From the NCBI RefSeq assembly GCF_026210795.1, contig NC_089431.1:1674001-1738000 (forward strand): DNA of 64,000 bases, given 5' to 3'. The DNA comes from Rhizophagus irregularis (taxonomy: Eukaryota). Position numbers and translations under genes: made by a program. Under the pieces are notes generated by a model that saw only the letters and a list, made by a program, of their open reading frames with translations, was not told the DNA's origin and ran no database searches. The stretch's first letter is position 1. Each line of letters begins with the position of its first letter. This document shows positions 23,396 through 53,733 of the stretch, piece after piece.

Positions 23396-23526
23396 CCCAA
23401 CCTAGTCTAATCGCTAATGGATCATCTATCGCCTTAGTAAAATCAAAAACTATAAAATTCTGATTTCGCAAATGCTTGTCAATAATCTTGGATGTCTTTT
23501 TCGGATCATCCGTATATTGACGCACA
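23370..23526 (-). pseudogene. 3' part of the outer element's A32-like ATPase, separated from 46045-46645 by the inner element
   Basis: RQYTDDPKK...FIVFDF...DPLAIRLGW resembles the inner ATPase RLYTEE...FVVFDL...DPLSIRVRW; joins in frame across the TSD. Confidence 0.9.
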
Positions 23527-23990
23527 GTCGTCGGGCTGGGTGTGGGAGGTGCAAGCACCACCCACCTCCGGGTCTACGACCCGTCGCAGTACCTCCTTCC
23601 CCCTACGGGGGATCAGGAATCCCCTATATCTGTCACCATCTGTCAATAACATCAGTCATATAACAATATACTAAAAAAGGATAAATAAGGGAAAAGAGAG
23701 GAAAATACGATAGAATCAGAGGGGTATGACAGATATGACGGATATGACAGACGTTTCAGAAAAATCGGGAGAGGGGTATCCCCAGAAAAAAGTTTTGATT
23801 TTACCCCCCAGATCTGTCATTCTGTCATAGTTATGTCATATGATCAGGATTCCGTCTAATAATCTGTTGGAAGCAGTGAGATAGCAAACCAGATAAGTTA
23901 GCAGGTAAGCCCCTAGAAGGTCTATAAAGCCAGTAAGACCAACCCCGTCCCGCCCCCGTCAGAAAAAATAAGTAATTGAATAATGAGTAT
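23527..23990 (+). repeat. Left TIR
   Basis: Reverse complement of 45581-46044 with few mismatches; starts GTCGTCGGGCTGGG. Confidence 0.95.
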
Positions 23991-24029
23991 TGAGAATAGA
24001 GCATATCCAGATAAGTTTAGAAGACAGTA

Positions 24030-24350
24030 CTAATCCGTCTTCCTCTTTTTTGCCTCCTTAAGGCATTTATCAATACACTGTTTACACGCGTCATCAGAAT
24101 CTAAGATTTTCTGTCCAAGTTTTTTGCATTGCCGATTGTAAGCCGTCTGCTGTCTCTTAGCAGCGGTTTCTTTCCTTTTCTCCTTAGTCTTCTTCTTGAT
24201 CACCCAGTCTATTCCAGTAAAAGTATTCTTATGCATACCACAAATTGTGCAGTCACCATGCAGCCGGTAACGCCCATTTGTAGTCATATCTTGTATTTCA
24301 CTAGCCGTCTCAGTTTCCTTCTTGCACTTTAGGCAGTAAAAACGTGTCAT
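24030..24350 (-). CDS. Small zinc-ribbon protein (DUF5679-like)
   Basis: FYCLKCK...NGRY..GDCTICG. Confidence 0.65.
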   Translation of the reverse strand: MTRFYCLKCKKETETASEIQDMTTNGRYRLHGDCTICGMHKNTFTGIDWVIKKKTKEKRKETAAKRQQTAYNRQCKKLGQKILDSDDACKQCIDKCLKEAKKRKTD

Positions 24351-24394
24351 TTTAAGATTTGAAGTCTAAAACCATTCCTTTAATTTGTCGTAAT

Positions 24395-25486
24395 ATGTCA
24401 CACTTAGAGAATTACTATAAGTACTACAATCTCTCCAGAATATCAGCACGAATTCTAAAAGGTGAAGAGCACTACAACCTATACAAAAAGCCCCTAAAGG
24501 AAAAGTCAACAGAACGCCCAAAGGTAATTGTATGGAAACCAAATGCAACACATCAGGCAGATCTTGCAGAGATGCCAGTTGACCCCAAAGGATTCCACTA
24601 TTTTCTCGTAGTGGTGGAAGTTGCAGGAAAGAGAGTTGATGCAGAACCCCTAAAGGATAAGACTGCAAATAGAGTTCTAAACGGGTTTGTCAAAATCTAC
24701 AGAAGAAATCGTATCAAGCCTCCAACACACTGACTGGAGACGGACTCCGGATCAGAATTCACTAACGACCAGGTACGTGATTTTTTCCTGAACAGCCTAG
24801 GGGTAATGATGAGGTTCGGAGAGCCAGGAAGGCATAAACAGCAATCTTATGCTGAAAGAGCTATCCAAGCCATCCAAGAACCCCTTCTTAAACGAATGGT
24901 AGCACAGGAGTTGAAAACCGGGGTGACATCCATGGAATGGTCAGAAGATTTCCATAATATAGTGAGTAAAGTAAATGAACTCTGGCAGAGAAATCCCCCA
25001 GACATTCCGACAGGGTCACCCAAAGTGTCAAAAAAGACAGACCTCCTCTCTGAAGGAGCACGTGTCCGAGTAAAGTTAGATGAACCTATCTCAGTACTCG
25101 GTAATAAACTTCATGGAAAATTTCGTACAGGAGACATAAGATGGAATCCCAATATCCGTGTCATCAAAAAAATGATCCTCTCACCCGAACAGCCTCCTAC
25201 GTATCTTCTTGATGGGCCATATGGTCGATTAGGTGTATCCAGATGTGCATATACCCGAAAGGAATTGCAAGTAGTTCCTATTAATGAAAAGCCTCCACCT
25301 GACTCTGTGATAAGAGGACAACCTGAAAGATTTGTTCCTGAGCAGATACTTCGGCATCGCATTAGAAAAGGTCAAGACCAGTATTTGGTTAAGTGGGAGC
25401 GCTATCCAGACACTGAGGCTACTTGGGAACCTGCTGACCGGTTGAAGGAGGATGTCCCTGACTTAATTCGCAAATTTTGGGAATAA
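24395..25486 (+). pseudogene. rve-type integrase with C-terminal chromodomain, one in-frame TGA (24731-24733)
   Basis: HQADLAEM, H*LETDSGSEF, SYAERAI; chromo PEQILRHR...QYLVKWERY...TWEP. Confidence 0.9.
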
Positions 25487-25511
25487 AAAAAAATAGAAGA
25501 ATTAAAAGGTC

Positions 25512-26243
25512 TTATTTTTTGTCTCCTCGATTCACGTCAGAAACTATCGGGATAAAAACATTCTTCTCATTACAAGTAAGGGCGATATGTTCACGTGATT
25601 CATGGACATCATAATTGTAACGTTTCAGACACGTCCGGCTCAATCCAATCTCCCTATGCTTGTAATCGCTTAAAACCGCAAGATTCTCAGTGATTACACA
25701 ATCAGGGGTTAGTTTGATTGACACACCTTTTACCATGCCGAATGTCCTACCAGAACCCGGAGCGCCGGATATGTTATGTGTAATACTCTTGTCGATATCC
25801 AACCCTAATTCTTCAGCGGCTTCCCTCTGAATAAAAGACGCGTTAGCACAAGTGTCTGCTAAACACTGAATTGCTATCCCATTGACCTCCCCATCCAGCG
25901 CTAAAAGATCTTTAGTATTCTCCAAACGAGCTATGTCAATATCCATCAGGTCATCTTCCCTGATATCCTCTTCTTGTTTTTCCTCAACTAGGTCTTCAGG
26001 AATCTCCGTACTTTTACGAGCAGACTTTAATTCTTCCCGAAGAATCTCGCGGAGTAATTTTCTAAAATCTGCAGACCTTAATAAACTTAATGAATCATTT
26101 TTGGTGACGGCTTTTATAAGTGTGGGCTTACTACTAGTAACCTTCACAGGAATCTTAATAGGAGTCATTTTAACTGATTTTTTTGGAACAGATTTAAGAA
26201 GTTTCGAGATACTTACACCCTTATCCGAGTTTACTTTTTTTTT
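25512..26243 (-). CDS. Retropepsin-like aspartic protease, in -1 frame relative to the Gag-like ORF
   Basis: VNGIAIQCLADTCANASFI...AEELGL; no ATG near the start; overlaps the A9G-TAA site. Confidence 0.8.
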   Translation of the reverse strand, partial: KKKVNSDKGVSISKLLKSVPKKSVKMTPIKIPVKVTSSKPTLIKAVTKNDSLSLLRSADFRKLLREILREELKSARKSTEIPEDLVEEKQEEDIREDDLMDIDIARLENTKDLLALDGEVNGIAIQCLADTCANASFIQREAAEELGLDIDKSITHNISGAPGSGRTFGMVKGVSIKLTPDCVITENLAVLSDYKHREIGLSRTCLKRYNYDVHESREHIALTCNEKNVFIPIVSDVNRGDKK

Positions 26244-28413
26244 GTACTTCGAACCGCACAAATCCGAAAACCACCTTCCTCATCGGGAACAATTTTCAAG
26301 TCATCAAAACTTGCGGTATTAGTATCAATATCCATAGCATCATCATTAAGATCGAGGTTTCTCATTGCTCGGGCTAATTCCAGATCATCGCGTCTATCTT
26401 TAGCCTTCTGAAGTCTCTTTGGAAATCTTTTAGACGTCTCATATCCCATAATAAGATCAATAACATGTTGATCATCCTCACTAGTCCACTCAGGAGCATC
26501 AGGGTTACCAGGGTCATCACCAAAATCATGATCTACATAACCATCATCCCAATCAGGATCCTGATGATCCTGAACAACGCGTGGCCGTGGCTTTGGCCGA
26601 ACAGGTTTAATCTGTTGTCTATAGACCGGTGGTTTACGAACTGGCTTAGATGCTTGTAATTGTTTAAATTGTGCCTGGAAATTCTTGGTAAGTTCCTCGG
26701 CTTGTGCCATTGAGCAATTCTTGTAATCGTTCTTGAGTAATAACGTCTGTCGACCTTTGTATTACAGCACCTTTGTGTGGAGTCACGGGATGAGTATAGC
26801 CAGCCAATTCCTCTTTTTTAGCCTTTTCAATACCCTGACGCCTTTGTAATCCATAGAACATTTCGCCCTTTCGTCGCTCAAGATCACTCAATCTATCAAT
26901 TAATGTATTAAGAGGTGCCACCCCGATTCTGGAAGCTTCAATAACGTTTTCCGGCAAAAGTCCTCTATAGAACTGGTCAGTAACCATAATTCGATTATAT
27001 CCTACAATATCCCCAGCCCTCTCAACTCGCTTGTAGTAAGATCGAACAGGTTCACCTTGTTCCTGGTAAAGGTTACTAAATCGTATTTGAAGTCTTTCTT
27101 CCACGACGGTTGGAAAATTTGTGCGCATATGCATAAATGCTTGATCCAGGAGAATCCCCTGTAAGACTATTGGTTGATTCTGGACAGCAGCATTAAATGG
27201 ACCTCCATGATTTCCCAACCCATTAACGGGTTGATGAGTAGGACGTCCGCCCACACGTTTCCACTGCTCTTCAACTTTAAAATTCGTTCTAACGATATCA
27301 GCGCGTGATGGGAAAAATGCATTTCCAACGGTTACCGCCGCATTACCTGCAACCCTTGAATATACATCAGCATCAGACCCGGGTAAGTAAGTACCAACAT
27401 GTAATCCATTAGCAACCTCAGGAACAGCTAAAGCTCTGAACGCTCGGCGAGTAGCACCGGCTCCACCATTTGCAGTAGCCACTAACCGAATATTCGAGAG
27501 TTCCCAATTTTTTCCAGTAAGTTCTGCATCAAACCACCTCGCCGCTTCATCTCTCATACAGCTACGAAGAACCCCATCGCTCGCACCCGACCCGGAGGCG
27601 CACCGGCATCGTCCAATGGATCAATACCAACGGTATTAATATACCCTAAAAAGTTATCAATAAAAAGATTAAGATCTTCATCTTCCCGACCATGAAATAT
27701 AGGGGCAGCTATACCAACGGCAGCCATATCGTATTTTGTGGATGGTTGAGAGGAGGTGGAGGAGGGTTCAATTGTCTAATCCGAAACCATTGTACTTGGA
27801 TACGCAGAGCGGCTATTTGTTGGAAAAGTCAATTCCTAAGACGTCCCAATGTCCGAATTCCAAAAAGAACCCGATTATTGGCATATACAAGCCGATTTCG
27901 TGCCGCATCACGCTCGCCTATAGCTCTATTACGTTCACCTATAGCTCTATTACGTTCTCCTCTCATAAGATTATATTGCTGCTGAAGACGACAATTAGTC
28001 GTCCGCATACCACCAAACTCACGTTCCAATTCAGCCAAATTAGCTTCTAAACCAGTAATAGTATCTTGTACGTTATTTAGCTCATCTTGTGTAAGACCTA
28101 ACAAACCCGTTTGAACCTCGAGTTCATCTTGTAATTCATCACGTTCTTTTCGAGATCGATCGCGTTCTGCTTTTAATATATCGCGTTCTTCGTATGTTTC
28201 TCTACAGCGATGAATTAATAAATTAAGAGCATGTTTAAGACGATGGTTTGCATTTTGTACATCTCGATTAACAACCATGCGATCACTGACAGTTAAAAAA
28301 TCTGTTAGATCCTTAATTACCGCAACTAATGGTATATTATTCATATCACGCAAATCCCTAGGAGGCGGTCCAGTAGGCTCTGAAGGAGTATAAATTGCAA
28401 TTGGTGTCGACAT
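26231..28413 (-). pseudogene. Gag-like polyprotein (coiled coil + retroelement capsid), one stop and ~3 frameshifts
   Basis: PIFHGREDEDLNLFIDNF (~27650-27705), SCMRDEAARWF, MHR-like YQEQGEPVRSYYKRV, QFYRGL. Confidence 0.8.
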
Positions 28414-28444
28414 CGTATTTAAACTAAGTTAGAATAAAATTCAA

Positions 28445-29668
28445 ATGGATCTTTATGTATACAATTTGGACGAGTACACGACCGACTCGAGACAGGGTAA
28501 TGAGTTTGCCCCATCATGGCCTTTCCGTCTTGCCGTAGTAGGAAGTTCTGACTCGGGTAAGACAACTATGATTATTAATTTGTTAATGGGAGACAAGAAG
28601 GCAAAGGAGGATGGCGAAAGGTACATATTATGTGATGCGGTAATTCTAGTTGGCAGATACCTCGATGAACCGAAGTGGGCAGTCGTACGTGATTTTTTCA
28701 AAGAAGAAGAAATTCCATTTACCACAGTATCCCATAGTGAGATTCCAAATGTTAAGGACTTCAACTCCACCCAGGCTACTGTGGTAATCTTCGAGGATTT
28801 GATGGATGCGCCTAAAAAAACCCAGGATCTCATCACTGGATTTTTTACACACGGGCGTCACAAAAATATCTCGTGTATCTATGTGGTCCAAAGATTCTTT
28901 GCCATTCCTAAGGCTATTCGAGAAAATGTTAACTACATCTCACTGCATGGAAATCATGAGAGCCTTACAGATACCAAGAGAATCATCCGCCTATATACAG
29001 AAGAATCAGAGTCATTAGCACCAGTAATTGATGATCTTACTCTGCAACGTGAATTTGTAGTGTTTGATCTTAAACGGTCCAAAAGTGATCCACTGTCCAT
29101 TCGAGTAAGATGGGATACTAGTCTCAGTTCGATCACAGAGCAATCTCAGTTCAATTCTAGTTCGATCTCAGTTCAATCTCAGTTTGATCCAAGTTTGAAC
29201 CCAGTTCGATCTCAGTCTGAACCCAGTTCAATCACAGTTCGATCCAAGTTTAGTCCCTATGGTCAGAAAGCTGTATTTGAAGCAAAAAAAGGTGGACACT
29301 TGATTGAATTTGCTCGGGTATTTCCATCCCCTAAAGAACGTCAACATTTACTTGTACCTAGTGTCTTAGCCAAGAATGCAGATACCTGGATTAAATATGT
29401 CTTTCGGGAAGCTTATGGACTCTCTGGTAAGACCCTAGGAGCTGACTTTCAGGATTTCTTAGCAAAAGTACAGGGTAGGACTGCAAAGACTGAAACTCTG
29501 AAAACTGAGAATGTGAAGGAGTTATTCTCCCGATATGAAGCCCTGAAGTCTAGTCGCCCTCTGGATAATAAACAAATAATAGAAGGTATTGAAGTCCTTC
29601 TACAGATCTTTTCTAAGAGCCACATGGACCGTCGAGCATTACAAGTAGGGATTAATAGTATCTTGTGA
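28445..29668 (+). CDS. A32/FtsK-HerA-like viral DNA packaging ATPase
   Basis: Walker A VVGSSDSGKTT, Walker B VVIFEDL, GRH arginine finger, Q sensor, IREN. Confidence 0.88.
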   Translation: MDLYVYNLDEYTTDSRQGNEFAPSWPFRLAVVGSSDSGKTTMIINLLMGDKKAKEDGERYILCDAVILVGRYLDEPKWAVVRDFFKEEEIPFTTVSHSEIPNVKDFNSTQATVVIFEDLMDAPKKTQDLITGFFTHGRHKNISCIYVVQRFFAIPKAIRENVNYISLHGNHESLTDTKRIIRLYTEESESLAPVIDDLTLQREFVVFDLKRSKSDPLSIRVRWDTSLSSITEQSQFNSSSISVQSQFDPSLNPVRSQSEPSSITVRSKFSPYGQKAVFEAKKGGHLIEFARVFPSPKERQHLLVPSVLAKNADTWIKYVFREAYGLSGKTLGADFQDFLAKVQGRTAKTETLKTENVKELFSRYEALKSSRPLDNKQIIEGIEVLLQIFSKSHMDRRALQVGINSIL

Positions 29669-30212
29669 GAATATCAAGTAATTCGTCTGCAGAAGCTCTA
29701 AGAATCATAGCACTTTTTTTACGGCCTTCAAAGTCAATCCTTAACATCTTAGCCTTCAACCCTATTGCTCCTAAAGCACGAGAAGCGAAGTTCTTAGTCA
29801 TTGGATTACTTATATGATTTACATAGTTCTCATAGAATGTAGTGAAAGGCTCGTCAATACCATCTGGATATGTATCCCTTAGAAATTGATATAAAGCAAT
29901 TTCTCCACTGTCATAACCTATGGCTATAAGCTGTTCGAGAAGCCACTTCCTAATATCTTCATATGGCTCTCCATCCATAATATTCATATCCAGTCTTTGT
30001 GTAAACAATCGTGTAAAGTCCACATTACTTCCCCGACGAATGATCTGAACTAACTTATCCCTAGCAAGTCCCAAGGCTTGTAGAGGGTCATTCTCATCAC
30101 TAATCTTTTTTATAATCTGTCTGTATAATACACTGGATAATCCTCTATATGCTGTTTTTGGAGTGATTACTCCATAGTTTTGGCATTGGTTTATTACGAT
30201 TGATGTTGACAT
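29652..30212 (-). CDS. Hypothetical protein; C-terminus resembles the helicase's post-ATPase (winged-helix-like) segment
   Basis: LYQFLRDTY..FTTFYENY..MTKNFASRAL versus helicase LFQFIKDTY..VQEFYRVY..LSKINASRIL. Confidence 0.6.
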   Translation of the reverse strand: MSTSIVINQCQNYGVITPKTAYRGLSSVLYRQIIKKISDENDPLQALGLARDKLVQIIRRGSNVDFTRLFTQRLDMNIMDGEPYEDIRKWLLEQLIAIGYDSGEIALYQFLRDTYPDGIDEPFTTFYENYVNHISNPMTKNFASRALGAIGLKAKMLRIDFEGRKKSAMILRASADELLDILTRYY

Positions 30213-30257
30213 GGCTATCTTTCTTTATGTAAAAAAGAATTATTCAAAATTAAGTAA

Positions 30258-30836
30258 CTATTCGGAGCAGTCCTTGCACAACTTGTCCGTTAAGTCACTT
30301 GGGCTTACAGGCATGAGACATTCCCTACACAACTCAATATTAAGCTCTGCAAGTCTCGGGGTATGGTCCTCCAAAATTCGTGGACGACCGGAAGGACCGA
30401 TAGTTGTCATATCAGTCATATCCTGCTGTAAGATAAAATCATCATATTCATCTTGATCAGCCTGAATAGCAGTCCTGATTTGTTGTATATCATTGAAAGT
30501 TAACCGCTGTCCATCAAGATTTTCCTCATTATAGCGTGTTTCATTGATGATTTCCTCTATAAGCGCCTCTTCTTCATAATGGACAAGGTAGTAATCCTCA
30601 ACTACCTCATAGTCACTCTCAATCAGTCTATGATATGTTTTAGTACCACGTCGAACATAACGTCCTGTATCTGTATTTAAATATACAGGTTGCTCTTCAG
30701 GTGGAGGTGCAGTTTGTCTACGGACAAGCCTTCCATCAATATAATCATGGGATTCCATAACTATTCGATTAAAGGTATCTCCACCGATAATAATTGGACG
30801 TCCAGTTATAGGGTTAGCTATATAAGGGTAAGACAT
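30258..30836 (-). CDS. Protein with two NPxTGR motifs (2-cysteine-adaptor-like) and a C-terminal CxxC..CxxC
   Basis: NPITGRPIIIGGDTFNRI and NTDTGRYVRRGTKTYHRL; CREC..CKDC. Confidence 0.6.
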   Translation of the reverse strand: MSYPYIANPITGRPIIIGGDTFNRIVMESHDYIDGRLVRRQTAPPPEEQPVYLNTDTGRYVRRGTKTYHRLIESDYEVVEDYYLVHYEEEALIEEIINETRYNEENLDGQRLTFNDIQQIRTAIQADQDEYDDFILQQDMTDMTTIGPSGRPRILEDHTPRLAELNIELCRECLMPVSPSDLTDKLCKDCSE

Positions 30837-31186
30837 GTCTTTTTTCTGTATGTGTCTACATACCTAATAGTTTTCTTCAATTTACAATAACCAAGTGACA
30901 CGGTCATCAGTCCTTATTAAGGCAAACATGGCATAGTAGCCTTTATCTTTATTAAAATTATTTATCGAACTTACAAAAATAATATAAAATTTTCAAAGTA
31001 CAAAAAAAAAATAAAATTAACTAAAAACAAAACTATATAGTCTCCAAAACAGTAATAAAGCTATAAAATTAATTCGAAAAGGAAAAAATCGCATAACACT
31101 AAAACTATCCTGATCCTCCGCCTAGATATATTCCAACCTAAGAAGAAGCAACTATGCAAACAAACCAACGAACAATGCGCCCATTG

Positions 31187-34100
31187 TTAAAATCGACACA
31201 CCACCCTGCTAAAGCTGTTAGTAAGTTGCACCGTTAGACGACCCATAAAACCCGAATAGTGATTAAACCAAGGCAAACCATATTTCATCGAGTTCTTTAA
31301 ATAATCAACGTCGGAGTCACGTGCGGCGTCAGAAAGGGTCGGAGGAGGTAAAGTTGAGAAAGGTAAGTACGTGGACTTTGGCAAATTTGAAGGCCGAGAA
31401 AGTTTGAGTTTATGAGTAATATTCATCGTGTCTTCCCATATAGATTTATCATAGGAGCGCGGTAGCCAAATTCGTTTTCTGATCTTTTGGATAAAGTGAT
31501 TGTGAATAGCAGAGATAACCTTCATCGCAGAATTTCGTGGAATAGAAAGTTCTTCAAAAAATTCGACAAAGGATTTCGGAAGGCAGCCACGGACAAGGCT
31601 ATATGAAGTCCAATTTGAAGAAGAAAAGGACCAACAAGGAAGAGATTTAAATTTGTTAATAATTAGAGACGGATCTTTGTTAACAAGATCACCAGCTTCT
31701 TGAAGTTTGTTGATAAAATGATTTTGGTAAGAGAGGAGAATCTGTTCCATAATGATTCGTCTACATTTGCACATAAATAAGTGCATGAAATCTTCCTTGG
31801 AGTCGAGGCATGAACGACATAATAAGATGTCGATATACAAGTCCGGGCGGATTCTTTTAAGATGTTCCAAGATAGGTAAATCATCCAAAAAGAGTTTGAA
31901 TTTGAAGGTTCGATGAGAAGAAGCATGAGCACGAGTAAAAGAAGCATCATGCTGAGGTTCAGCATTTAACGTGAACCAGGTAAGATCCCAATCGATTACA
32001 AAGTCTGAGATGGAAGATAAAGCAATGGTAAAGTTAAATCGCGATAAACGCGTTAATCTATGCATCCACAGCATTTGCGAATATTGCTTGAATAGGCGTC
32101 GTGGGTTAGATTCTCATAAAATATCATCATATTTTAATAAGAAATCGTGAGGAGATACTTGATCCAGATCAGAAAGAAGAATTGCTGAAGAGGAAGTATG
32201 CGCAGAGTTGGCCAGTGAGTCCGCGTAGTCATTGTAGAAATTACCAGAGTGACCTTTCACTTTAACGGCCATGACGGTTAAAGATTTGGATGAAATGAGA
32301 CGTTCAATAATAGCCCAAAGTTCAAAATTGGTGGTCTTGTAATAAAGCCTACTATTAGAATAAGAAAAGGTAGCACATAGACGAAGACCGTCTATGGCAG
32401 ATTGAGAGTCAGTATGAATAGTGACCGTTGAAGAGGGAGGAGTGACTGTAAGAGCAGCATGTATAGTGGCGATTTCAGCTCTTGTAGAAGAAGGCCAATT
32501 GTGAATAATTCCATGAGCGTGAGCAGCGATAGATTGGAAAAAGCCAGCGCCATCAAGGACTTGAACCCAAGACCAACCCATAGAAACATCAGGAGTGCCA
32601 AGGTTAATTAAAGAACCATCGGTATAAAAACAATAATGGTTATCAGGAGGAGTCGCTAACGGTGAGGCAGCAAAAGCAAGAGGGGCAGCCGAACTCAAAG
32701 AGGGAGGAGGAAAAGGAGAGGGGAGAATAACCACATCTTCTTGTGAAAAATTAGGTTGAATGTCCAAATGACCATAATAGGATCTTACAGTCTCGTCAAG
32801 GTCCGCCCAAGTAAAAGGAGAAGTAATAGTGGTGGTGTCATGTCTAATACGCTCCTGCGTTGTTGGGAGAAGTAAAGATCTAAGAGGAGAGAGTTTTGGG
32901 ATGATACATAAAGGAGTAACATCTGTTGGATTACTTTTAGTATGGGTAACCGGTACATGTTTAGAACAACCGGGACAAGGAGTAAGCGTGATAACATCAT
33001 TAGGTCGAATCACACAATCAGAGGTCCAATGGACAATCTTGCAGGAATATTGTTGTTTACTGAGCTGTTTTCCAAAAAGAGGAGAGCCATCATCATCCAA
33101 AGTTACGATCCATTTCATGGATTTGTGAGAGGAACCAAAGGCGGGGACCAAGTCGATATTGGAAGGAATAGCATCAGAAAAGAACCGATCCAAAAGAAGA
33201 GAGTTGGAATCTGGAGTAGTGACGCATTGATGAATGTCATTGAACCATTTGTGTGGGAGGACACGATGACCTTTCTTGCTCGATAAATTGGATAGATAAA
33301 TGTTCCAAGTAATCATATGGGTTCCTTGAGGCGTAATAAATTGTGATAGGTAATAAAGTTGCAAGCTTCTAAGACGTCGGAAGTAAGAAATAAAAATTTT
33401 TGGAGTCATAACATCATATAAAGGTGTATGACCATTGGACATAGTAAGGTCAGGCAAGGTTGAAAGTTGTGAACGCAACAACTTGAAGGGAGTGGTGGTC
33501 AGGAGAGCAATAGTACAAGCGATATAATCCTGTTTAAAAGCAAAAAGTTTAGACCATATAGTCCAATCTTTAACCAACAATGGGGAAATAGGAATTAAAA
33601 AAGAAAATTGAATTAAACGTAATCTATATAGAAATAAAATTTTCATAAAGGAAGAAGAAGAATTAGCTAATAAAAACAAATTAGTTAAATGTGTTTGTGA
33701 TTGGTGAAAAAATAAATTAATCAATCCCAAGCCCTGAGATAAGAACAAAATAGAATCAGGGAGTACTCGTGAAAAGTTGGCCTTATGTTTAACCAAGGAA
33801 CGGATACTGCTGGTTGCCGAGGCACATTCAGATTCGGAGAGGTGAGTGACTTGCATACGATATTCCAGCTTCGGAATAAGGACGGTATTGTGCAGATAAA
33901 CAACTTGTTTTGCAGATAGTTTGGCAGGGCGAACGATAGCCGCGAAGGAATTGCATTCACGAGCAACTTGCTTCTTGACAAAATCACGAGAACCGGTGAC
34001 ATTGAACCAGACGCCTAGGAAGCGAAAAGAGCTATTCATGGAGATAGGCACAATAGAAATGGAAGGAACTTTGTTCAGTCCAGATAATTGCAAGTCAAAC

Positions 34101-36808: not shown

Positions 36809-36855
36809 TAGAACACTATGATAATAAAGTACGGGGAAAGGAGGTGAGAAATCAG

Positions 36856-38988
36856 TTATTGCGAAGGAGCAGAAGCTCGATCGGAGGGAGAACCACCAAG
36901 AGAAGCAATAAAACCTTGGATGGAACCAGTGAGCGATTGTAAAGTATCTTTAATCACTTTTTGATCTTGAATAACGGAGTTCAATTCGTCTTGCGGGGAA
37001 GGGTTAGAAGTGGATGCAGAAGTAGAGTGTGGAGCTTTGTTGGAAGTAGATGGAGGGGAAGAGGATTTCATTGAACCAGCAGATAAGGGAGCATTGGGGT
37101 GCTGGATTAAGGTACCAGTGGTTTCAGGAGGGTCTTCTTCCATTCGATCAGGTTCAGTATTAACGACAGGTGCAGAGGGAGGATTAATGCCTAAATGGGC
37201 TTCTATAGCAGAGAGCCGTTGGTTGTTAAGTTCAAGGGATGAGATGCGGGATTCCACACGAGCAACATCTAGCTGAAGGTTCTTCAAAACATTAAGAATG
37301 TTGAGAGCAGCATCAAGGGCACTAGAAGAATTTGGATCAAGGAGCGGAGCACGAGCATTGGACGAAAAGGAAACAGATCTATCTTTGCCTTTACGGTTGT
37401 TGGAAGGTGTACGTCCATGAGCAGTTGAGGAGGAGTTAGTTGAGCCAGAGGAGGAGGAGGGCTTAGCATTAATATTGGAATTATTATTATTAGATCTATT
37501 GGAGTTGGAATTAGAACGATGAGCTGAGGCCAAACGATCCCGAGATTTAGATCGAGATCGAGAATGAGAATTATTGCGTGGCGTTCTTTGTTGGGCGGGC
37601 CTTTGGCCAATATTGAAGCGTTCTTTAAGAGCAGCCACAGGGTCACGTGTACGTGAACGACCACGGCGTTGATTAAGTGGACAGGAAGTAGGAGCACAAC
37701 CGAGTTTACCACAACGGTGGCAAAAAGCTTTCGAATCGTTGGATGTACCCCATCGAAGAGTACGACCTTGGAAACCAATAGTCTGCTCCATAGCGGCATC
37801 CATTGTCTCTTGCGAGTTGAAAGTAACATAAGCCCAAGGCTTGGGTTTATAAGAATTTAGGGAAAGGGGAATGTTAATAGCTTTTGCTCCATGTTCCTTG
37901 ACCAAGGGAGCGAGATGGATATCTTTGGTATTAGCGGGAAGTCCAGAGAGAACAGCTACGAACGCTCTACGAGCAGCTTTTTGATCCAAAGAGTAATGGC
38001 ATGGGGTAACACGTAAGCAGGTGGAAAAGCAGTAAACTGCCCATTGAGTTGTGAAACGGGAGATGGCATCGGCATGATCATAGACAATGCGAGCTTGTTG
38101 CATCTTAGCACCTTTCCTTGAGTAGAGATGAAGGGCAAGGAGATTGCCGAATTTCTTGAAGTAGGATTGGAGTTGCGGTTTAGTAATGAAGAACGGTATA
38201 TCCGTGACTTGAATTGCACGGAGGTCTTCATCGGACCGGAGCTGTTTGGGATCGTACAAGTGGAATTGTAGGTCCGGAAATTCAGAGTGCGTACTACCGA
38301 CGCACAGGTCACGAGCCTCCGCAGTGTGAAAATGAATGATAAGACGTTTAGCGTCCCCTGAACCAGTCATACGAGCCCGACCGGTATATGATTCATATGT
38401 TTCTAAAAACAAATTGTTAACGGCATCAATGATTGCCTTATTAGTTTTAAGTTTCTCTAGAGTTTGGGGAGCAGAGTTGGGCGCAGCCGCAGCCAGGAAA
38501 TCTTGGCGATTAATGGTAATGGTAGGGGAGGGATCAACAGCCTGATCGGGTGATGTACCATCATTCACGTCCATATTAGGGGACGCGTTAGGGGATGAGT
38601 TATTTTCTTTGTTTCGAGGTGCATGAATAGACGCGTTAGCTCCAGTGGACGCGTCTTGGCCAGGCGCAGTAGGCGCAGCAGAAATATTCGGGGTAGAAGC
38701 TTGAGTATTTTCTTGGGCGGTGCTGCGGGAATTATTTTGTTGAGGAATAGCGGTCAAAGTTGAACCAACTAAACCACCGTCAGCCGGCGCGTCGGCAACG
38801 AAATCTTCATAGTCTTCATCCATGGAGTCCTTTGTAAGTATACGGGAACGTTTTTGGGAATTATTATCACTATCAGAACCAGAGTTGTCAGAGAGTTGTT
38901 TTTTATTATTTTTCTTTTCTTGACGAGCAGCCTTATTACTATTAGGATTATAACTGCCGCCACCTCTTCTAGCAAGGTTTCTAGACAT
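36856..38988 (-). CDS. LINE ORF1 (RRM-like domains, zinc-knuckle-like motif, coiled coil)
   Basis: IQVTDIP..YFKKFG, VLSGLP..WAYVTF, CHRCGKLGC. Confidence 0.85.
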   Translation of the reverse strand: MSRNLARRGGGSYNPNSNKAARQEKKNNKKQLSDNSGSDSDNNSQKRSRILTKDSMDEDYEDFVADAPADGGLVGSTLTAIPQQNNSRSTAQENTQASTPNISAAPTAPGQDASTGANASIHAPRNKENNSSPNASPNMDVNDGTSPDQAVDPSPTITINRQDFLAAAAPNSAPQTLEKLKTNKAIIDAVNNLFLETYESYTGRARMTGSGDAKRLIIHFHTAEARDLCVGSTHSEFPDLQFHLYDPKQLRSDEDLRAIQVTDIPFFITKPQLQSYFKKFGNLLALHLYSRKGAKMQQARIVYDHADAISRFTTQWAVYCFSTCLRVTPCHYSLDQKAARRAFVAVLSGLPANTKDIHLAPLVKEHGAKAINIPLSLNSYKPKPWAYVTFNSQETMDAAMEQTIGFQGRTLRWGTSNDSKAFCHRCGKLGCAPTSCPLNQRRGRSRTRDPVAALKERFNIGQRPAQQRTPRNNSHSRSRSKSRDRLASAHRSNSNSNRSNNNNSNINAKPSSSSGSTNSSSTAHGRTPSNNRKGKDRSVSFSSNARAPLLDPNSSSALDAALNILNVLKNLQLDVARVESRISSLELNNQRLSAIEAHLGINPPSAPVVNTEPDRMEEDPPETTGTLIQHPNAPLSAGSMKSSSPPSTSNKAPHSTSASTSNPSPQDELNSVIQDQKVIKDTLQSLTGSIQGFIASLGGSPSDRASAPSQ

Positions 38989-39092
38989 GTTAGAAGGTAT
39001 GAGTTGGGTAAAATATAAGAGTTGTTAGTACGAAGATATAAAATTTTCTTTCCGAAAATTTTTGGTCAATAGATCGGCGGTAAGAGATCTAT

Positions 39093-39275
39093 ATCAGTCC
39101 TTATTAAAAAATGCAAGGATACCTGATGATAAGGTTACATGGTCATCAATCCTTGTCGAAAAAATGCAAGGATACCTGATGATAAGGTTACATGGTCATC
39201 AATCCTTGTCGAAAAAATTCAAGGATACCTGATGATAAGGTTACATGGTCATCAATCCTTGTCAAGAAATATGAG
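39093..39275. repeat. 53-bp tandem array of hairpin units; first unit split by the LINE (starts at 30902)
   Basis: ggtcatcaatccttgtcgaaaaaatgcaaggatacctgatgataaggttacat at 39141 and 39194, partial at 39247. Confidence 0.9.
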
Positions 39276-39292
39276 AATACCCAATAAATAAG

Positions 39293-39709
39293 CTACTCCT
39301 GTTGAGTCCATTCGTTCCACTCCCAGTTCAGTCCCCAAGGGTCGCCTCCCCATCTTTGTTCACTTAATGCATGCTCTATGGTTTCTCTCTCTTGGGGGTC
39401 CACGACCATCCCATTCCTAAGCATTTTCTCCATAATATAAAGCTGATCCTCGGTGAGGCGGTCTATCCATCTTTTATAGAAGTCGTTTACATCTTCAAAT
39501 GATATCCAGTCAATATTCCCTTTTTCAAACGGCTTTCTAAGAGCTTGGACATGCCCAATTGTAGTAGCGTAATTTTTCCATCTCTTATATGCTTCTTGAC
39601 GAACCTCCTGCCACCACACACTATCTACTTTACTCGCTGCAATAAGGTCAGTATCTGGGATCTTTGCAACAATGCGTTCGACTATTTCTACTGGTAATCG
39701 GTCCAACAT
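39293..39709 (-). CDS. F-box-like protein
   Basis: N-terminal LDRLPVEIVERIVAKIP..DLIAASKVDSVW. Confidence 0.75.
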   Translation of the reverse strand: MLDRLPVEIVERIVAKIPDTDLIAASKVDSVWWQEVRQEAYKRWKNYATTIGHVQALRKPFEKGNIDWISFEDVNDFYKRWIDRLTEDQLYIMEKMLRNGMVVDPQERETIEHALSEQRWGGDPWGLNWEWNEWTQQE

Positions 39710-39802
39710 GATGTTATGTTACTTATACTATAGCCATCTTCAATTACTGTATGCCCATTACAAATGGATAAAAAATATAAACTAAATTCGTACAGGAGCC
39801 GC

Positions 39803-40273
39803 TTATACAAGAAGTTCTGCTAAGGTTTTCTCAGCCTCATTTATAGTGACAGCTCGCTTTGGGGGACCTGTTAATGAGTCCTTAGTTACATTATAATACA
39901 ACTCGAAGAGGGCCTCAAGTTTGTCTAAAAGAGCTTGTTTATTCTTGTATGATTCACGAATCTTTGCTATCTTAGCAGTATATGCTGCATTATCTGGGAA
40001 GAGTTTTCTGGCCACGAACTTCACATATGATACAGGAGACTTTGCTGTCTGGATTCTCTTGATATACTTCACATGATCCTGGACAAGGTAGCTGGTTTTG
40101 CTAAACCCAGATACTAATGCGACTACTATAGTGTCTTTCAATGCACGGATAATCTTGAGGACAGTTTCATCAGAGACAATGGTGAACTGATTGTGTGATG
40201 CATCATAAATAACTTTATCACTAATGCTGTCAGTGCTGTTAATAATGCTTGCTAATTCGGTATATGTTGACAT
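39803..40273 (-). CDS. Hypothetical protein
   Basis: Intact 156-aa ORF in a co-directional gene run. Confidence 0.6.
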   Translation of the reverse strand: MSTYTELASIINSTDSISDKVIYDASHNQFTIVSDETVLKIIRALKDTIVVALVSGFSKTSYLVQDHVKYIKRIQTAKSPVSYVKFVARKLFPDNAAYTAKIAKIRESYKNKQALLDKLEALFELYYNVTKDSLTGPPKRAVTINEAEKTLAELLV

Positions 40274-40386
40274 GATTCCTTATACTTTTTTGTACTTTGT
40301 AATAAATAGAAATCTTCAAATTGACTTTACATTCAAGCAAGAAAAAATATATATACCTACTGTAAATCCAACCGCATTCTTGGCAA

Positions 40387-42266
40387 TCATGTCCAGATAA
40401 CCTTGTTTGCATTTTTCACATGGCAGTATCCTGCGGTTTCAAACTTGAGAGCTTTCAATGCTTTGGATGCATTTTCTGGACAAGTGATAAGTGTAGGACT
40501 ACTCGGCTGTTCCTCTAGAATAAATCCATCTGTATGGATGCGTCGTACTTTATCCTTATATGGTTCTAATAACTCTGAAGTCGTCTTCCATCCATGTGCT
40601 AATAAGAATGGAGCGATCCTAGGATACTCACCCTTGAAGGGACTACCTGGGTTTGTGAACTGGAATCGCCACTGGTCAGATCCTACTGGTACGATGGAGT
40701 CAAGTGTGTGGCCTTCTGGAAACTTGAATGGATCTGTTTGATCTGTGGTGAGTGTCTTGTAATTGCGTTTTCTCTGGCAGAGTGCTCCCCATAGTGTATT
40801 GAGAACTCTCTTTGCAACACGACCGGCCACGCCACCCTGGTTCTTTATATTGAAGAGAAAGTGGACATACTCACCAAATATTACAGTCCCAGGAATTCTT
40901 GCTTCTCTGTCATATATCAAGGCATTTGGCTTTCCATCCTGGATTAACTGTATATCGAGACCAAGTTTCTTTGCTCGTTGTAAGTCAATGAATGTATAGA
41001 CTCCCTCTTATTCTGTCGGAAGAGAATATCATTACCACTTACCTTGCCCTTGGGCGCTCCCTGGGAGCTAGCACGAAATAATCCATACAAGGCATAACCT
41101 CTATGGTCTACAAAGTCTTTGAGTATTTGAAACTTACCTTGTCGGATTGGAAAGTTTGCATTTGATTGCTGAATACTTGGATACAAACTTGTCACGTCGT
41201 ATTGCCTTCCATAGCCCTTCCATTCATTGTCTGCCCAGATAAGACCTCCCATTATTGCATCACTTATCCACTCTGCTTCGACTGGGTCAAGAGGATCATT
41301 GGCTGGAACCCCTACACTAAACCGTTCAAAAAGCCAGAGTGCAGTTCTCTTGTACGACCAGTTGTGGTAAGATAAGTCAATTCCTAGACCGAACTTCTTT
41401 GTAGCCTGTAGGAAGGAATCCCGCTCTTCATGGATCCTCTGGTATGTTTCCTCAAGTGTTTCATATATTCCAGTTTTACAATTCTTCTCGATAGGGATGA
41501 AGGAGTAACTATCAGAGTTCTTACCTTTCTGAAACTGTCCAACTGTAAGAGACTTAACTGTCTTACCATTGTATATTGTTACTACATTATTAACCCCATC
41601 TTCACGATAAACAAAGGGAGACTTTTGTTTTCTATCTAATTTGCTAGGGTGGAGTCTTCCGGGATTCAGTGCAAGAGAGTAGTGGCCTTCAGACAGGATA
41701 AGTGTTGCACGTCTGTCAGATTTGCTCTTAGAAATTCGAGTGGAATCCCCTACAATATTAAGTGCAAGGCTTCCTGCAAGTTGTTCAACCTTATCCATAT
41801 ATGAGACTGGAACTGGAGCATCACGATTGAGACCTAATGCCTTTTTGATATACTCGGGCTTTTCGATTGACTTTGGCATTTTAGAGAATGTGCCGTAGAT
41901 ATATTTCAGGCGTTCATACAGGCAATCATTTAGCTCCCCGTTGCAACCCCCTGCAACCGGTGGGGCATCTCTCACATAAATTATGAATCGTTCAAAATAA
42001 TCAGGGTCTGCGTCATCCGGTAGTTGTGCTTCGTCGTAGTGGTCCAAGAGTGAGAAGAGGCTGGCTGGTTGGTTTCCTGATGTCCATCCACCGGGTTTCC
42101 AGTTTTCATAGGGGAGCAGGATCTGAAATTTATGTGTCGGATACCGGGATTGGAGTCGCTGTCCAAGTCTTGCTATTGCTCCTCTGGAAAATCTTGCACC
42201 TGAATACTGTAATTCTTTGATATCCGGTCTTGTAGGTAAAGCACGGACAATCTCTGAATAAACCAT
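40387..42266 (-). pseudogene. Short family B DNA polymerase, protein-primed-like, one frameshift near 41005
   Basis: MGGL..YDVTSLYPS, KRVLNTLWG, RIHTDGF; the frameshift-corrected reading gives GVYTFIDLQRAKKLG. Confidence 0.85.
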
Positions 42267-42388
42267 TTGATGTATTTATGAATTGTGTTCAGTTGTAATA
42301 TAGGTTTTTTATACAAAAAATATAAGATAACTAAGAAGTGCTTATCTTATTAAAAGGAGTCAATCTTGCTGCATACACGATCAAGATC

Positions 42389-44971
42389 CTATTCATCCCA
42401 GTCGTCGACAATTCCATTGGCGGCTTCCCATTCACGTTCCATATCAGTTTTTGGACGTTCCTCTGGAATTTCTCGTGCTTTACCCTTATTCATCTTCATA
42501 GTTTCATAACCAGAGGTGGTAGGGATAATCTCGGCATCACGATCCTCCTTGTATACTCTTATTAGATCTGCGAGTTCTTTACGGCTAGGTGTTTTAGGTA
42601 AGTTCCCATTATATTCGATCCAGTCCTTGAAGCGGTCTACTACCTCCCTAAGGTAGTACTGGTACTCGTCCTCAATACGTGTTGTGGGACATTCCTCTAC
42701 TTCAAACGCGAGTATTTCCCAGTCATAGTCATCTGACACGTCTTGGTACTTAGCCCATAAATTCTTACCTGTATTGTAGAGATCATTAAAGACCTGGTCC
42801 TTTGAATTCTTGACCCATGGCTTACGATCCCATCGGTGCCTTTCATGCCAAGTCCAGTGTGCTCGAGTACCTTCCTTTGGTTCAGGGTCCCAGTCAACTT
42901 CTAGTTCTGTGTCAGGTTCTGAGATAGGTTGCTCTTCAGGAGCCGGTTCTGGGTCAGGCTTAGTGACAGATGCAGAAAATTCTGCAGGAGACTCGGGTTG
43001 TTGTTCAGGAGCCGGTTCTGGGTCAGGCTTAGTGACAGATGCAGAAAATTCTGCGGGAGACTCGGGTTGTTGTTCAAGAGCTGGGTTCACAGTTGTAAAA
43101 TCTGAGTCAGATAGCAAGTCATCTAAAACGTCGTAGTCATCATCAGCTTTAAATGCAGGTTCTTCAGCAGGCGGCTCATTTTCTTGATCAGGTTCCTCAT
43201 CAGATAGATAACAGTCCGAGAAGCTATCTATAGGTTCATCAGTATCTGATTCTATAGGAGCTGGAGATTCCTCAGGAATAGGATCCTCATTGATGACAGG
43301 TGCGGGTTTTACCTTCAAGCAATCGGGCTTAAGTGGTACTGGTGGTGGAGTCTTTTTAGTCTCTTCAGTAGGCTTCTTCTCGACAGGAGCGGGTTTTTCC
43401 TCAGCAGGTTTAACAACAACTAACTCCACTTTCTCTTGATCTACTTGCGACTTACTAGCTGGATTATATATATTTGCCAAGAACTTCTCCAAGGCATTTG
43501 GATCAGATGCGGGCTTCTCAGGAGTTTCTATATCTATTCCTTCTATATTGATTTCATCTGTTTCATGGATCCATTTTTTGCCAAGGTATTTCTTGTAAAG
43601 ATCCTCCCTGGATATGCTATATACTCGGGTTAACTTTTTATTTATATAAGTCCGATTACTATTTATACTCAACTCATTTGATAGGATTCTAGAAGCGTTT
43701 ATCTTTGATAATGGTGAGATGCAATGAGTTTCACAGTATGAAGTATATACCCTATAAAATTCTTGAACAGGTAGGTTGGTTATATGATTTTTTACTATGA
43801 GGTAAGTGTCCTTTATGAATTGAAATAGGGGTGGAAGAGTCGATATGATGTGATCCTGCTTAGATGTTGTCATAGGTGGTGGATTCCCATTGAAGTCTGG
43901 GTAAGCGTCTGCAATGGCTCTCAAGTAAGCATAGAATGCCTCACTGGCGCCTGGGTATTTCATAGCGTCACTGAGTTTCTTAAAGTAGTTGAGGTCTCCC
44001 TTGCGGGATGGTGACACATCCAAGAACACTGTACGCCTATCGTTATTCTCCACTCTGAGAGCATTTTCATTAGTGAGTACAATGGTGGATATAAAGTTTT
44101 TGTAATGTGTTGGCGTCTTGTATTTTTCATGGATTTCCATTATATCGCCTGTTACCTTATCCTTCAACGATCGATACAGATTATTCCACTGGCTTTTTTC
44201 TGTAGGCATTTCCTCGAGGAGGAGAAGAACCTTACCCTGTAATTGCCCATTGAAACTTCCAAGAATCGTTTGAGGATCGCTGGTCTTATAAACAAGTTGA
44301 GTACCTAAAACACTACGTTGAATGAAATTTGTTATAATACTCTTACCCCAACCCTGTCCAGATTTCAGGTAGAGAATCGAATACATTTTCCTTCCAGCTG
44401 CCACACCGGCCAACCACTTTATGATATACTCAGTAAGATTCCAATCGCCTGAACACCAGATATCCTTTATGTGGGAGAAGATAAATTTAACCGCGAGGTG
44501 GGTTGTAGATTCAAAAGTGGATATCGGACACAGGATATGGAGGAATCCTGGAAAGATATTGAGATAAAGTTGGCCACCTAGTTTAAAGATACGGGATTTT
44601 TGAGGGTCACAGGTAGCTACACATACAGTACTATATTCGATCATAAACCATTTGTTGATATTAAATTCAACCTTTTGTGAAGGACCCTGTTCAGATTGTG
44701 TGTAAAAGACTTTGGTAATTGGACGGATAAGTTTATTAATATTTTTATCAGGGATGTGCTCGAGGTTTTTGATTTCTGATCGCCACATGAAGACTCCATG
44801 TGGGTTGGAGCAGGGGATAAAGTAACTGCAAAAATAACCTTTAGCTTGATTGAGATCCCTCATATTTTTTGCAGCGTTAATGAGCCGTTTAAGCTCATCA
44901 ATACTAAAAGCCTTCTTCTGTTCACCGAACTTGGGGATAACTTGAGCTTGAGTGCTAGTTTGGGCAGTCAT
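42389..44971 (-). CDS. D5-like/SF3 helicase with acidic Pro-rich C-terminal region
   Basis: SGQGWGKS, FNGQL..LLLEE, VLTN..DRR; 69-bp tandem duplication at ~42935-43076. Confidence 0.85.
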   Translation of the reverse strand: MTAQTSTQAQVIPKFGEQKKAFSIDELKRLINAAKNMRDLNQAKGYFCSYFIPCSNPHGVFMWRSEIKNLEHIPDKNINKLIRPITKVFYTQSEQGPSQKVEFNINKWFMIEYSTVCVATCDPQKSRIFKLGGQLYLNIFPGFLHILCPISTFESTTHLAVKFIFSHIKDIWCSGDWNLTEYIIKWLAGVAAGRKMYSILYLKSGQGWGKSIITNFIQRSVLGTQLVYKTSDPQTILGSFNGQLQGKVLLLLEEMPTEKSQWNNLYRSLKDKVTGDIMEIHEKYKTPTHYKNFISTIVLTNENALRVENNDRRTVFLDVSPSRKGDLNYFKKLSDAMKYPGASEAFYAYLRAIADAYPDFNGNPPPMTTSKQDHIISTLPPLFQFIKDTYLIVKNHITNLPVQEFYRVYTSYCETHCISPLSKINASRILSNELSINSNRTYINKKLTRVYSISREDLYKKYLGKKWIHETDEINIEGIDIETPEKPASDPNALEKFLANIYNPASKSQVDQEKVELVVVKPAEEKPAPVEKKPTEETKKTPPPVPLKPDCLKVKPAPVINEDPIPEESPAPIESDTDEPIDSFSDCYLSDEEPDQENEPPAEEPAFKADDDYDVLDDLLSDSDFTTVNPALEQQPESPAEFSASVTKPDPEPAPEQQPESPAEFSASVTKPDPEPAPEEQPISEPDTELEVDWDPEPKEGTRAHWTWHERHRWDRKPWVKNSKDQVFNDLYNTGKNLWAKYQDVSDDYDWEILAFEVEECPTTRIEDEYQYYLREVVDRFKDWIEYNGNLPKTPSRKELADLIRVYKEDRDAEIIPTTSGYETMKMNKGKAREIPEERPKTDMEREWEAANGIVDDWDE

Positions 44972-45191
44972 TTTTTGTTCTATCAAATCGAGTACTAATT
45001 TATAGTTACCTAATCTTCAATTGCCGAATATTTTTTCCAAAGATCTGCACTCCTACCAGGTTATCCTCCTGTAGTCCTGTGGTCCTGCGATTCTGCGGTC
45101 CTCCGGTTATATCTGGTTATCTTCTAGGGGTAAAAAAAAAAATATAAACCACGAACCTTTACGACTGCTCTAAATCTTCCCTTCCCCTTTT

Positions 45192-45551
45192 TCAAACTAC
45201 ATATATCTGAAATCCAAACCGCTCAAGAGCTCCTTTTACTATAGTTAGCTCTTTTCTAGTGTCCGTTAACTCTTTACAAGCCTTTTGATATGCCTCCCAT
45301 TCAAGTTCACGGAGGATACCCTCCTCATCCAATGATTGGCCAAGAGCATCATTTGCTTTTTCCTTCTTTTCTACTGCCCTGTCGTATGCCTCCTCAGCTT
45401 TTTTATGCCGCTTCCAGAGTACTCGTTCAGCTTCGGCTTTTCAGATTGGGCTGACTTTTAAAAGATATAGCCCGAAATTGCTACTTGGAATGTGTTCCAG
45501 GATATGGCTTACAAGTTCGGGGATTACTGATACTGCGTGCGGGGTATACAT
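45192..45551 (-). pseudogene. Second F-box-like gene (119 codons) with an internal TGA at 45441-45443; absent from the ORF track
   Basis: MYTPHAVSVIPELVSHILEHIP..LLKVSPI*KAEAERVLWKR, similar to the 39293-39709 N-terminus. Confidence 0.65.
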
Positions 45552-45580
45552 GTTATCTGTCCTTATAGGTTACTTATGGT

Positions 45581-46044
45581 ATACCCATTGTTCAATTACT
45601 TATTTTTTCTGATGGGGCGGGACGGGGTTGGTCTTACTGGCTTTATAGACCTTCTAGGGGCTTACCTGCTAACTTATCTGGTTTGCTATCTCATTGCTTC
45701 CAACAGATTATTAGACGGAATCCTGATCATATAACAGAACTATGACAGAATGACAGATCTGGGGGGTAAAATCAAAACTTTTTTCTGGGGATACCCCTCT
45801 CCCGATTTTTCTGAAACGTCTGTCATATCCGTCATATCTGTCATACCCTCTGATTCTATCGTATTTTCCTCTCTTTTCCCTTATTTTATCCTTTTTTAGT
45901 ATATTGTTATATGACTGATGTTATTGACAGATGGTGACAGATATAGGGGATTCCTGATCCCCCGTAAGGGGGAAGGAGGTACTGCGACGGGTCGTAGACC
46001 CGGAGGTGGGTGGTGCTTGCACCTCCCACACCCAGCCCGATGAC
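45581..46044 (-). repeat. Right TIR
   Basis: Inverted copy of 23527-23990. Confidence 0.95.
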
Positions 46045-46645
46045 GCACAACCTTACATATGTCTTCTCTAGATCCACTCCCTCGGAACATGACTAGATGT
46101 GAGATATTTTCACGAATTATCTTTAGTACAGCTTGATATTTCTGAGTTACATATATTGGTGAGATGTTTTGATGCCGACCGCTAATAAAGTAAGGGACGA
46201 TACGTTCTTGTATTTTTTTTGATTCAGCGCAGAGATCTTCAAAAACAATAACAGTGCTTCTTTTTGGGGAGAATTTGCTTATATCTGGAATTTTTTCGGC
46301 CTTTATTGTTTGAAATGAGATATTCTTCCGATATGGGTCAGGGCTATTTGCAAAAATATGGAAAGCATTTTTAACCAGCTCCCATTTAGGCTCAGCATGT
46401 TTTCCAACCAATACGAGGTGATCATTTTTAATATATCTATTCCCCTTCTTGCCTTTAAACATACGCTGAAGTTTGTTGCCAAGAATAAGGTTTATAACCA
46501 TATTAGTTTTTTCACTATGTGAGCCTCCAGTCACTAAAAGGCGAAAAGGCCAATCTGGACTATATTTATTACCCTTCATTCGATCCAAAGATTTTCTGGG
46601 GATCTCATTAACGTTATACACAAAGAATTCCATACAGTATTGCAT
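46045..46645 (-). pseudogene. 5' part of the outer element's A32-like packaging ATPase
   Basis: WPFRLLVTGGSHSEKT (degenerate Walker A), VIVFEDL, GRHQNIS, IIRENI. Confidence 0.88.
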
Positions 46646-46692
46646 ATTATGCCAAAATGAATTTCTTAGCCCAAAAAATTTCTGGGATGGAC

Positions 46693-53729: not shown

Positions 53730-53733
53730 TCGA

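Follow-up and report, generated by a model that had tools for sequence, protein, structure and literature searches.

A Polinton-like element of Rhizophagus irregularis with a Gag-type capsid protein and a retropepsin, and no recognisable jelly-roll capsid module

The window, that is, the whole stretch of 64,000 nucleotides of Rhizophagus irregularis DNA that was analysed, contains a Polinton-like element (element 1) that is bounded by terminal inverted repeats (TIRs) and a target site duplication (TSD), and is interrupted by a LINE. Its features are listed here with their positions in the window and their strand; labels such as L002 designate loci of the metagenome scan described below.

23522..23526, unstranded: left TSD, GCACA, on the most parsimonious reading
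23527..23990, +: left TIR, 464 bp, begins GTCGTC
24030..24350, -: DUF5679 small protein (Pfam), also present after the integrase in L002
24395..25486, +: rve integrase with a C-terminal chromodomain and without H2C2 finger; internal stop at 24731
25512..26243, -: retropepsin, in the -1 frame relative to Gag, predicted active site LADTCA
26235..26243, -: A9 run that immediately precedes the Gag stop and is the predicted site of a -1 frameshift
26231..27727, -: Gag with its own ATG; its two-domain CA carries a big insertion within the N-terminal domain and is followed by a charged tail that lacks the CCHC knuckle
26709 and 27571, -: frameshifts of Gag in the window copy
27709..28413, -: coiled-coil ORF, its end overlapping the Gag ATG; internal stop near 27830
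28445..29668, +: A32/FtsK-HerA packaging-type ATPase with a helical C-terminal extension, intact
29652..30209, -: ORF of 185 aa, weakly suggestive of a D5-type winged helix, conserved beside the ATPase also in L002, L007 and L013
30258..30836, -: ORF with a 2C_adapt domain and CxxC pairs at its C-terminus; it has a conserved counterpart in L007
30921..39092, -: inserted LINE (RRM ORF1; endonuclease-RT ORF2)
39293..39709, -: F-box-like small ORF, weak
39803..40273, -: 156-aa ORF, no assignment
40387..42263, -: PolB of a short, protein-primed type (relatives have about 625 aa), frameshifted near 41002 in the window copy
42389..44971, -: D5-like SF3 helicase with an acidic proline-rich tail (Pfam DUF5906/Pox_D5)
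45581..46044, -: right TIR, 464 bp
46045..46049, unstranded: right TSD, GCACA

The two TIRs align with 455 identities over 462 aligned positions and 4 gaps, and the word GCACA at both flanks gives the element symmetric ends (GTCGTC.../...GATGAC). The length of the TSD is ambiguous, since a 9-nt word is common to both junctions, and is most likely 5 bp. Long TIRs with a short TSD, one of the criteria for a Polinton/Maverick transposon, are present in element 1, whose size without the LINE is 14.3 kb. An initial, sequence-only reading of this DNA had placed a PolB, an SF3 helicase, an integrase and an A32-like ATPase inside such repeats. This agrees with what we find: Pfam domains were assigned to each of the four proteins, with E-values of 4e-12 for Pox_A32 and 1e-4 for DNA_pol_B_2, and a weak rve match plus Chromo for the integrase. 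The retropepsin matches Asp_protease_2 (4e-8).

Element 1 sits within the A32 ATPase gene of a neighbouring, related element: residues 1-188 of the homolog P0325 correspond to window positions 46633-46040, and residues 186-233 to 23525-23382, on the same strand. Since the gene of the neighbour is split by element 1, the whole 22.5 kb came in as one unit.

The distances first given for the capsid and protease genes, 31 nt to the ATPase start and 25 nt to the integrase stop, are both exact. The second stands as it was; regarding the first, the spacing is right but the ORF found there is the coiled-coil ORF rather than Gag, the ATG of the capsid ORF being at 27727. The window copy is decayed, with stops in the integrase and in the coiled-coil ORF, two frameshifts in Gag and one in PolB. 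All five breaks are absent from the main contigs of other runs; the frameshifts fall in short homopolymers and the two stops are TGA (CGA in other runs). The breaks may also be long-read errors. Contigs from two RNA-seq runs have a depth of only about 2-7 and are scattered across genes and LINE alike, too sparse to reveal expression or splicing of element 1.

The LINE is flanked by its own 15-bp direct repeats (30906-30920 and 39093-39107), and no LINE-free junction was found among the contigs of other runs. One X2 contig connects 39082 back to 30904, and three 53-bp repeats whose unit resembles the LINE target word adjoin the LINE (39106-39269). Inside element 1, the RVT_1 Pfam match is confined to the LINE, so that the only reverse transcriptase is, as first proposed, that of a separate insertion.

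The neighbouring element (element 2, window 23382-23521 and 46050-61930) is decayed and has the same ATPase-integrase-Gag-protease core. The PolB ascribed to it by proximity is of the large, RNA-primed type and is fragmented, its PF00136 and exonuclease matches lying at 54373-56357 and 60019-61930; no TIRs of element 2 were found. In its integrase (46693-47250), a C-terminal treble-clef/endonuclease-like domain, a weak Pfam lead, replaces the chromodomain. A nested, MITE-like inverted-repeat insertion (51535-51806) truncates its protease, and an array of AT-rich palindromic repeats of about 50 bp (57030-58950), likely the end of another transposon, interrupts its PolB. The window also contains a Ty3/gypsy retrotransposon (6260-13782, with 300-bp repeats at 3464 and 13859). 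The Gag of the latter ends GAAAAAAAT-TGA-CTA and its protease ORF lies in frame with it, which might allow read-through; its pol shows, by eye, a P-loop kinase-like stretch behind RNase H.

The Gag fragment of the window has no Pfam match. Retrotrans_gag matches 29 of its 64 aligned relatives at E<=0.1 (best 2e-6). A PDB sequence search with a shallow Gag alignment returned nothing below E 0.7, and with a deep profile the C-terminal domain of PEG10 was found at E 0.0015. Aligned by hhalign with the gypsy Gag of the window, the Gag profile gives a probability of 88 and an E-value of 3e-6, with both domains covered. The structure was predicted for the Gag of L001, which is 83% identical to the CA of the window, and not for the broken window copy. 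For this CA model (pLDDT 87, pTM 0.79), ranks 1-37 of 48,161 chains are exclusively retroviral, retrotransposon or domesticated CA, including Arc. The best match is RSV (Z 9.7, rmsd 2.0 over 71 residues), with both CA domains matched, VIA Z scores remaining below 10 throughout for this helical protein; for the N-terminal domain, matches include Arc (Z 7.9, rmsd 2.1 over 66) and that of Ty3 has a Z of 6.3. Foldseek also places retroviral and retrotransposon families first, but with every E above 0.001. Judged from the model and the profiles, the Gag of element 1 is a genuine two-domain CA, and the retroviral fold that had been anticipated for it is the one predicted.

All 52 spanning rows of the 64 have an Ala/Gly/Asn-rich insertion of 80-125 aa in the N-terminal domain, which the gypsy Gag of the window lacks. 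The named homologs (55) are all from R. irregularis and are up to 97% identical; of ten deeper relatives looked at, eight have a name, six of them down to the species, and these are from R. clarus and Entrophospora, and the profile search gives 276 representatives at 50% clustering. Stand-alone Gags, such as that of element 1, form one supported clade (99/96; 30 of 47 rows), and 12 of the 13 that are full-length are without CCHC knuckle. In the other relatives, including element 2, coiled coil and CA are fused and many keep the knuckle. Scans of viral contigs with Gag, ATPase and PolB, plus one scan of genome contigs, returned no relatives.

The way in which Gag and protease are joined is also conserved. 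We compared six junctions, those of window elements 1 and 2 and of L002, L003, L007 and L008, these loci being from among the matches listed: in all six, Gag terminates over an A-run and the protease follows in the -1 frame. At three of these junctions a stop shortly before the A-run closes the -1 frame, which leaves the run itself as the sole place for a shift. An A8 run ahead of the stop occurs at 5 of 82 long ORF ends, all five being those of Gag, and KKK or KKR ends 11 of 13 full-length stand-alone Gag representatives. An independent X10 contig spans the site (25900-26360) with no gaps. As far as the sequences tell, the -1 offset between Gag and protease is not decay, and we infer a programmed -1 shift, ribosomal or transcriptional, at the A-run; no stable hairpin is predicted downstream of it. 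Among the matches listed, all 14 cases, which represent about eight distinct families, have a separate ATG for CA with the context purine-NN-ATG-G; the stop of the coiled-coil ORF comes 16 nt past this ATG in 13 of them and 13 nt past it in one. A programmed frameshift at this overlap was considered as a general mechanism and rejected, since an in-frame slippery heptamer is present in only 3 of 14.

Scanning metagenomes with the alignment of Gag yielded at least 14 loci (at least 564 stretches). All of these loci were found via Gag and so represent Gag-bearing copies only. Among the matches listed, nine of the 14 loci have the ATPase in head-to-head orientation to the coiled-coil ORF and CA, the other five having less than 700 nt upstream, too short to show an ATPase; as in the window, the integrase is convergent after the protease in the two loci that are long enough (L002 and L003). 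Several ATPases of these listed loci are only 50-61% identical to that of the window. The cassette of ATPase, coiled-coil ORF, Gag and protease is kept together across divergent families. In the comparisons among the listed loci, Gag dN/dS is 0.16-0.43 in 10 of 13; the three exceptions (0.8, 0.9 and 2.0) are near-identical pairs with few changes. In these Gag-bearing loci, the conserved position and the purifying selection for which a check had first been suggested are both found for gag-pro. CA and ATPase identities are correlated among the matches listed (Spearman 0.71, 45 non-independent pairs). In L004 (1-1679) they are discordant, the ATPase start being 98% identical to that of element 1 (over 47 aa only) and CA only 51%; this may be a case of module exchange between families.

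These results bear on the idea that an LTR retrotransposon once jumped into one Polinton and left gag-protease there as a passive remnant. Gag is indeed broken in the window copy and its kinship with Ty3/gypsy Gag is clear. Against the idea, the breaks are not seen in the main contigs of other runs, intact ORFs occupy the same place in families whose ATPases have diverged as far as stated above, and they are under purifying selection. LTRs are lacking, as had been claimed, and no LTR or TSD remnant was seen around gag-pro: the longest word common to its borders is 8 nt, and the cassette is not flanked by direct repeats of at least 30 nt. We regard this explanation as largely refuted.

No ORF fit for a double jelly-roll is found between the TIRs of the window copy, where all ORFs above about 200 aa are otherwise assigned and the largest without assignment has about 200 aa; the claim that no jelly-roll major capsid protein (MCP) is recognisable here holds in this respect. 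Among the matches listed, the printed flanks of L002, L007, L010 and L013 contain no large unassigned ORF. Sequence searches with the small ORFs of element 1 gave no match to a penton (weak leads or none), 25 ORFs gave no Pfam match to an adenain-type cysteine protease, the retropepsin being present instead, and no portal or vertex protein was identified in element 1. It may be that a jelly-roll capsid is encoded by other copies, or supplied by a helper virus, Gag being then an inner core or an accessory protein. One element only was read from TIR to TIR, and R. irregularis is reported to hold giant-virus DNA. The flanks and element 1 itself, as just described, speak against this alternative, and so do two studies that, in the accessible parts of their texts, give no MCP for Glomus Polintons (PMC4028283, PMC7805220); we consider it unlikely.

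The first of these studies describes the Polintons P_Gi1.1 and P_Gi1.2 of Glomus intraradices (R. irregularis) as being without MCP, penton and cysteine protease (Krupovic 2014, PMC4028283); P_Gi1.2 has an ATPase, and one Glomus Polinton is listed without it in the available part of Table S1. According to the relevant passage of the second, the MCP of Glomus Polintons is still unidentified (Bellas & Sommaruga 2021, PMC7805220). P_Gi1.1 and P_Gi1.2, which we compared by description only, resemble element 1 by their host group and by the lack of these three proteins, and measure 11-12 kb, versus 14.3 kb without the LINE. They differ in that no Gag or aspartic protease is reported in the text available and in that they were read as capsid-less transposons. 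Nine capsid-less Polintons are reported to have lost the ATPase and the protease as well; the ATPase is retained in element 1, which counts for the idea that Gag forms a shell.

The combination of genes has probably already been glimpsed: in the legend of Fig. 5 of Starrett et al. 2021 (PMC8502044), a Gag/retropepsin label appears in a PolB element, without discussion. The accessible text names neither host nor element and gives no analysis of fold, selection, synteny or frameshift; this element is probably of the same kind as element 1. In the full-text literature searched, no paper that discusses a Gag-bearing Polinton was found beyond this legend. In a 2026 preprint, whose available portion does not contain the word "gag", the A32 ATPases of Glomus/Rhizophagus fall close to Maverick-Polintons, and surveys of transposable elements in arbuscular mycorrhizal fungi, in the sections available, mention Mavericks only as expanded, recently in Glomerales.

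Among 87 relatives of the ATPase, Walker A is preserved in 85 and Walker B in 82; ATPase relatives include proteins of Diversispora. Its predicted fold is that of the FtsK-HerA/A32 packaging ATPases, with matches to STIV2 B204 (Z 12.7, rmsd 3.7 over 177) and to medusavirus A32 (E 2e-8). These data have to be considered together with the possibility that gag-protease is domesticated and has a function other than forming a virion, for instance as a scaffold of the replication or integration complex or as a restriction factor against LTR retrotransposons, the ATPase acting without capsid. The domesticated proteins Arc, PEG10, PNMA and Drt2 are among the fold matches of CA, and the large insertion and the loss of the zinc knuckle could signal a changed role. 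Yet none of the parts expected of a maturing particle has been lost, neither of the two CA domains, nor the protease, nor the -1 junction, and the ATPase remains adjacent and conserved. We find domestication rather improbable.

Regarding the polymerase, PF03175 (DNA_pol_B_2) matches the intact homolog P0210 with an E-value of 1.7e-7, and the cluster of intact 628-aa proteins has 103 members. The family is short, has no evident ExoI motif and has HTDGF as motif C, together with an OTU-like Cys/His pair. A PDB sequence search gave no match. The PolB of element 1 appears to be of the protein-primed type, short and atypical. Near the same cassette in L010 (371-904) there is a fragment of a PolB that has no Pfam match; its YTDTDS motif looks Polinton-like by eye, and it is possibly a third polymerase type.

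The conservation of this PolB family is relevant to another proposal, according to which the Gag shell packages the RNA of the element, with a reverse transcriptase borrowed in trans or from the nested LINE. Such a LINE is indeed present in the window copy, and the fused Gag family keeps the CCHC knuckle. But the LINE has a direct repeat of its own at its two ends, the element has TIRs and not LTRs, and the knuckle is missing from nearly all full-length stand-alone Gags. This proposal is in our opinion very unlikely.

The integrase of element 1 matches rve and Chromo and has no H2C2 match, unlike the gypsy integrase of the window, to which it is only 27% identical over 102 aa; that Polinton integrases lack the H2C2 finger is stated in PMC2836005. 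The predicted active site of the protease is DTC, not DTG, in element 1 and L007, and DSG in L002 and L003.

Compared to the canonical Polintons/Mavericks (Polintoviricetes, adintoviruses), element 1 agrees in having TIRs and a short TSD, a PolB of the protein-primed type, an A32 ATPase, and an rve integrase that bears a chromodomain and lacks the H2C2 finger. It differs by the absence of a recognisable MCP, penton and adenain, by the presence of Gag and retropepsin, and by its short PolB with the HTDGF motif and without evident ExoI. With Ty3/gypsy (Metaviridae), it shares a two-domain CA, an MHR-like motif and a retropepsin out of frame behind Gag; in contrast, its cassette has no LTRs, RT or RNase H, its integrase is on the opposite strand and its CA has the insertion. 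No RT-RNase H-integrase follows the protease, whose ORF stops and faces a convergent integrase (in the window, and in L002 and L003 among the matches listed). The chimeric anatomy first proposed, Polinton DNA genes with gag-pro and no LTRs, is supported, and none of the observations named at the outset as refuting it was made, the other copies having been sought via Gag. Element 1 qualifies as a Polinton in the transposon sense; it has the packaging-type ATPase of Polintoviricetes and falls outside that virus class for want of a double jelly-roll in this copy, and outside Metaviridae for want of LTRs and RT.

Other viruses offer partial parallels. Bidnaviruses have a Polinton-type PolB, as element 1 does, combined with a foreign capsid of the parvovirus-type jelly-roll. 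Caulimoviruses have a CA-related shell, as is proposed for element 1, and the DNA inside it is made by reverse transcription, without a packaging ATPase.

We propose that element 1 derives from a Polinton in which a Ty3/gypsy-type gag-protease replaced the jelly-roll module, and that it probably uses Gag as a shell for its DNA, because it has neither RT nor LTRs, and yet the packaging ATPase has been preserved jointly with CA, the protease and the frameshift signal. Against this reading stand the Foldseek E-values, the three near-identical Gag pairs with high dN/dS, the DTC site of the protease, the lack of a predicted hairpin after the A-run, the discordant L004, the Glomus Polinton listed without ATPase, and the fact that no portal or vertex protein was identified. 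The excised linear DNA would be copied from its TIR ends by PolB and the SF3 helicase. Translation of Gag would likely begin at the start codon of its own ORF; a minority of the ribosomes would likely slip by -1 on the A-run and give Gag-protease. Gag would assemble into a closed shell and be trimmed by the protease, the A32 ATPase would drive or organise the loading of DNA, and the integrase would insert the delivered DNA.

The Ty3 shell has a radius of about 24 nm to the CA layer, according to the relevant section of PMC6525542. With an assumed interior of 20-22 nm in a shell of this size, 14.3 kb of DNA is computed to fill 0.34-0.46 of the volume. At this density one would expect either a motor or a shell of larger size. 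We know of no CA shell that is filled by a motor.

In a broader and more tentative hypothesis, which we hold at slightly less than even, such elements would be RT-free dsDNA viruses of arbuscular mycorrhizal fungi, with a Gag-shell virion, a frameshift-expressed aspartic protease, a Varidnaviria-type ATPase and interchangeable polymerases (protein-primed in element 1, RNA-primed in element 2). Element 1 is real and conserved, and there is a strong chance that it represents a new virion type. Its Gag is a testable candidate for the missing capsid of Glomus/Rhizophagus Polintons. If such a particle exists, the capsid of a reverse-transcribing virus replaced the jelly-roll of a DNA virus while the motor was kept, so that two realms would meet in one virion, and such a shell could explain the spread of Mavericks between nuclei or strains of Glomerales.
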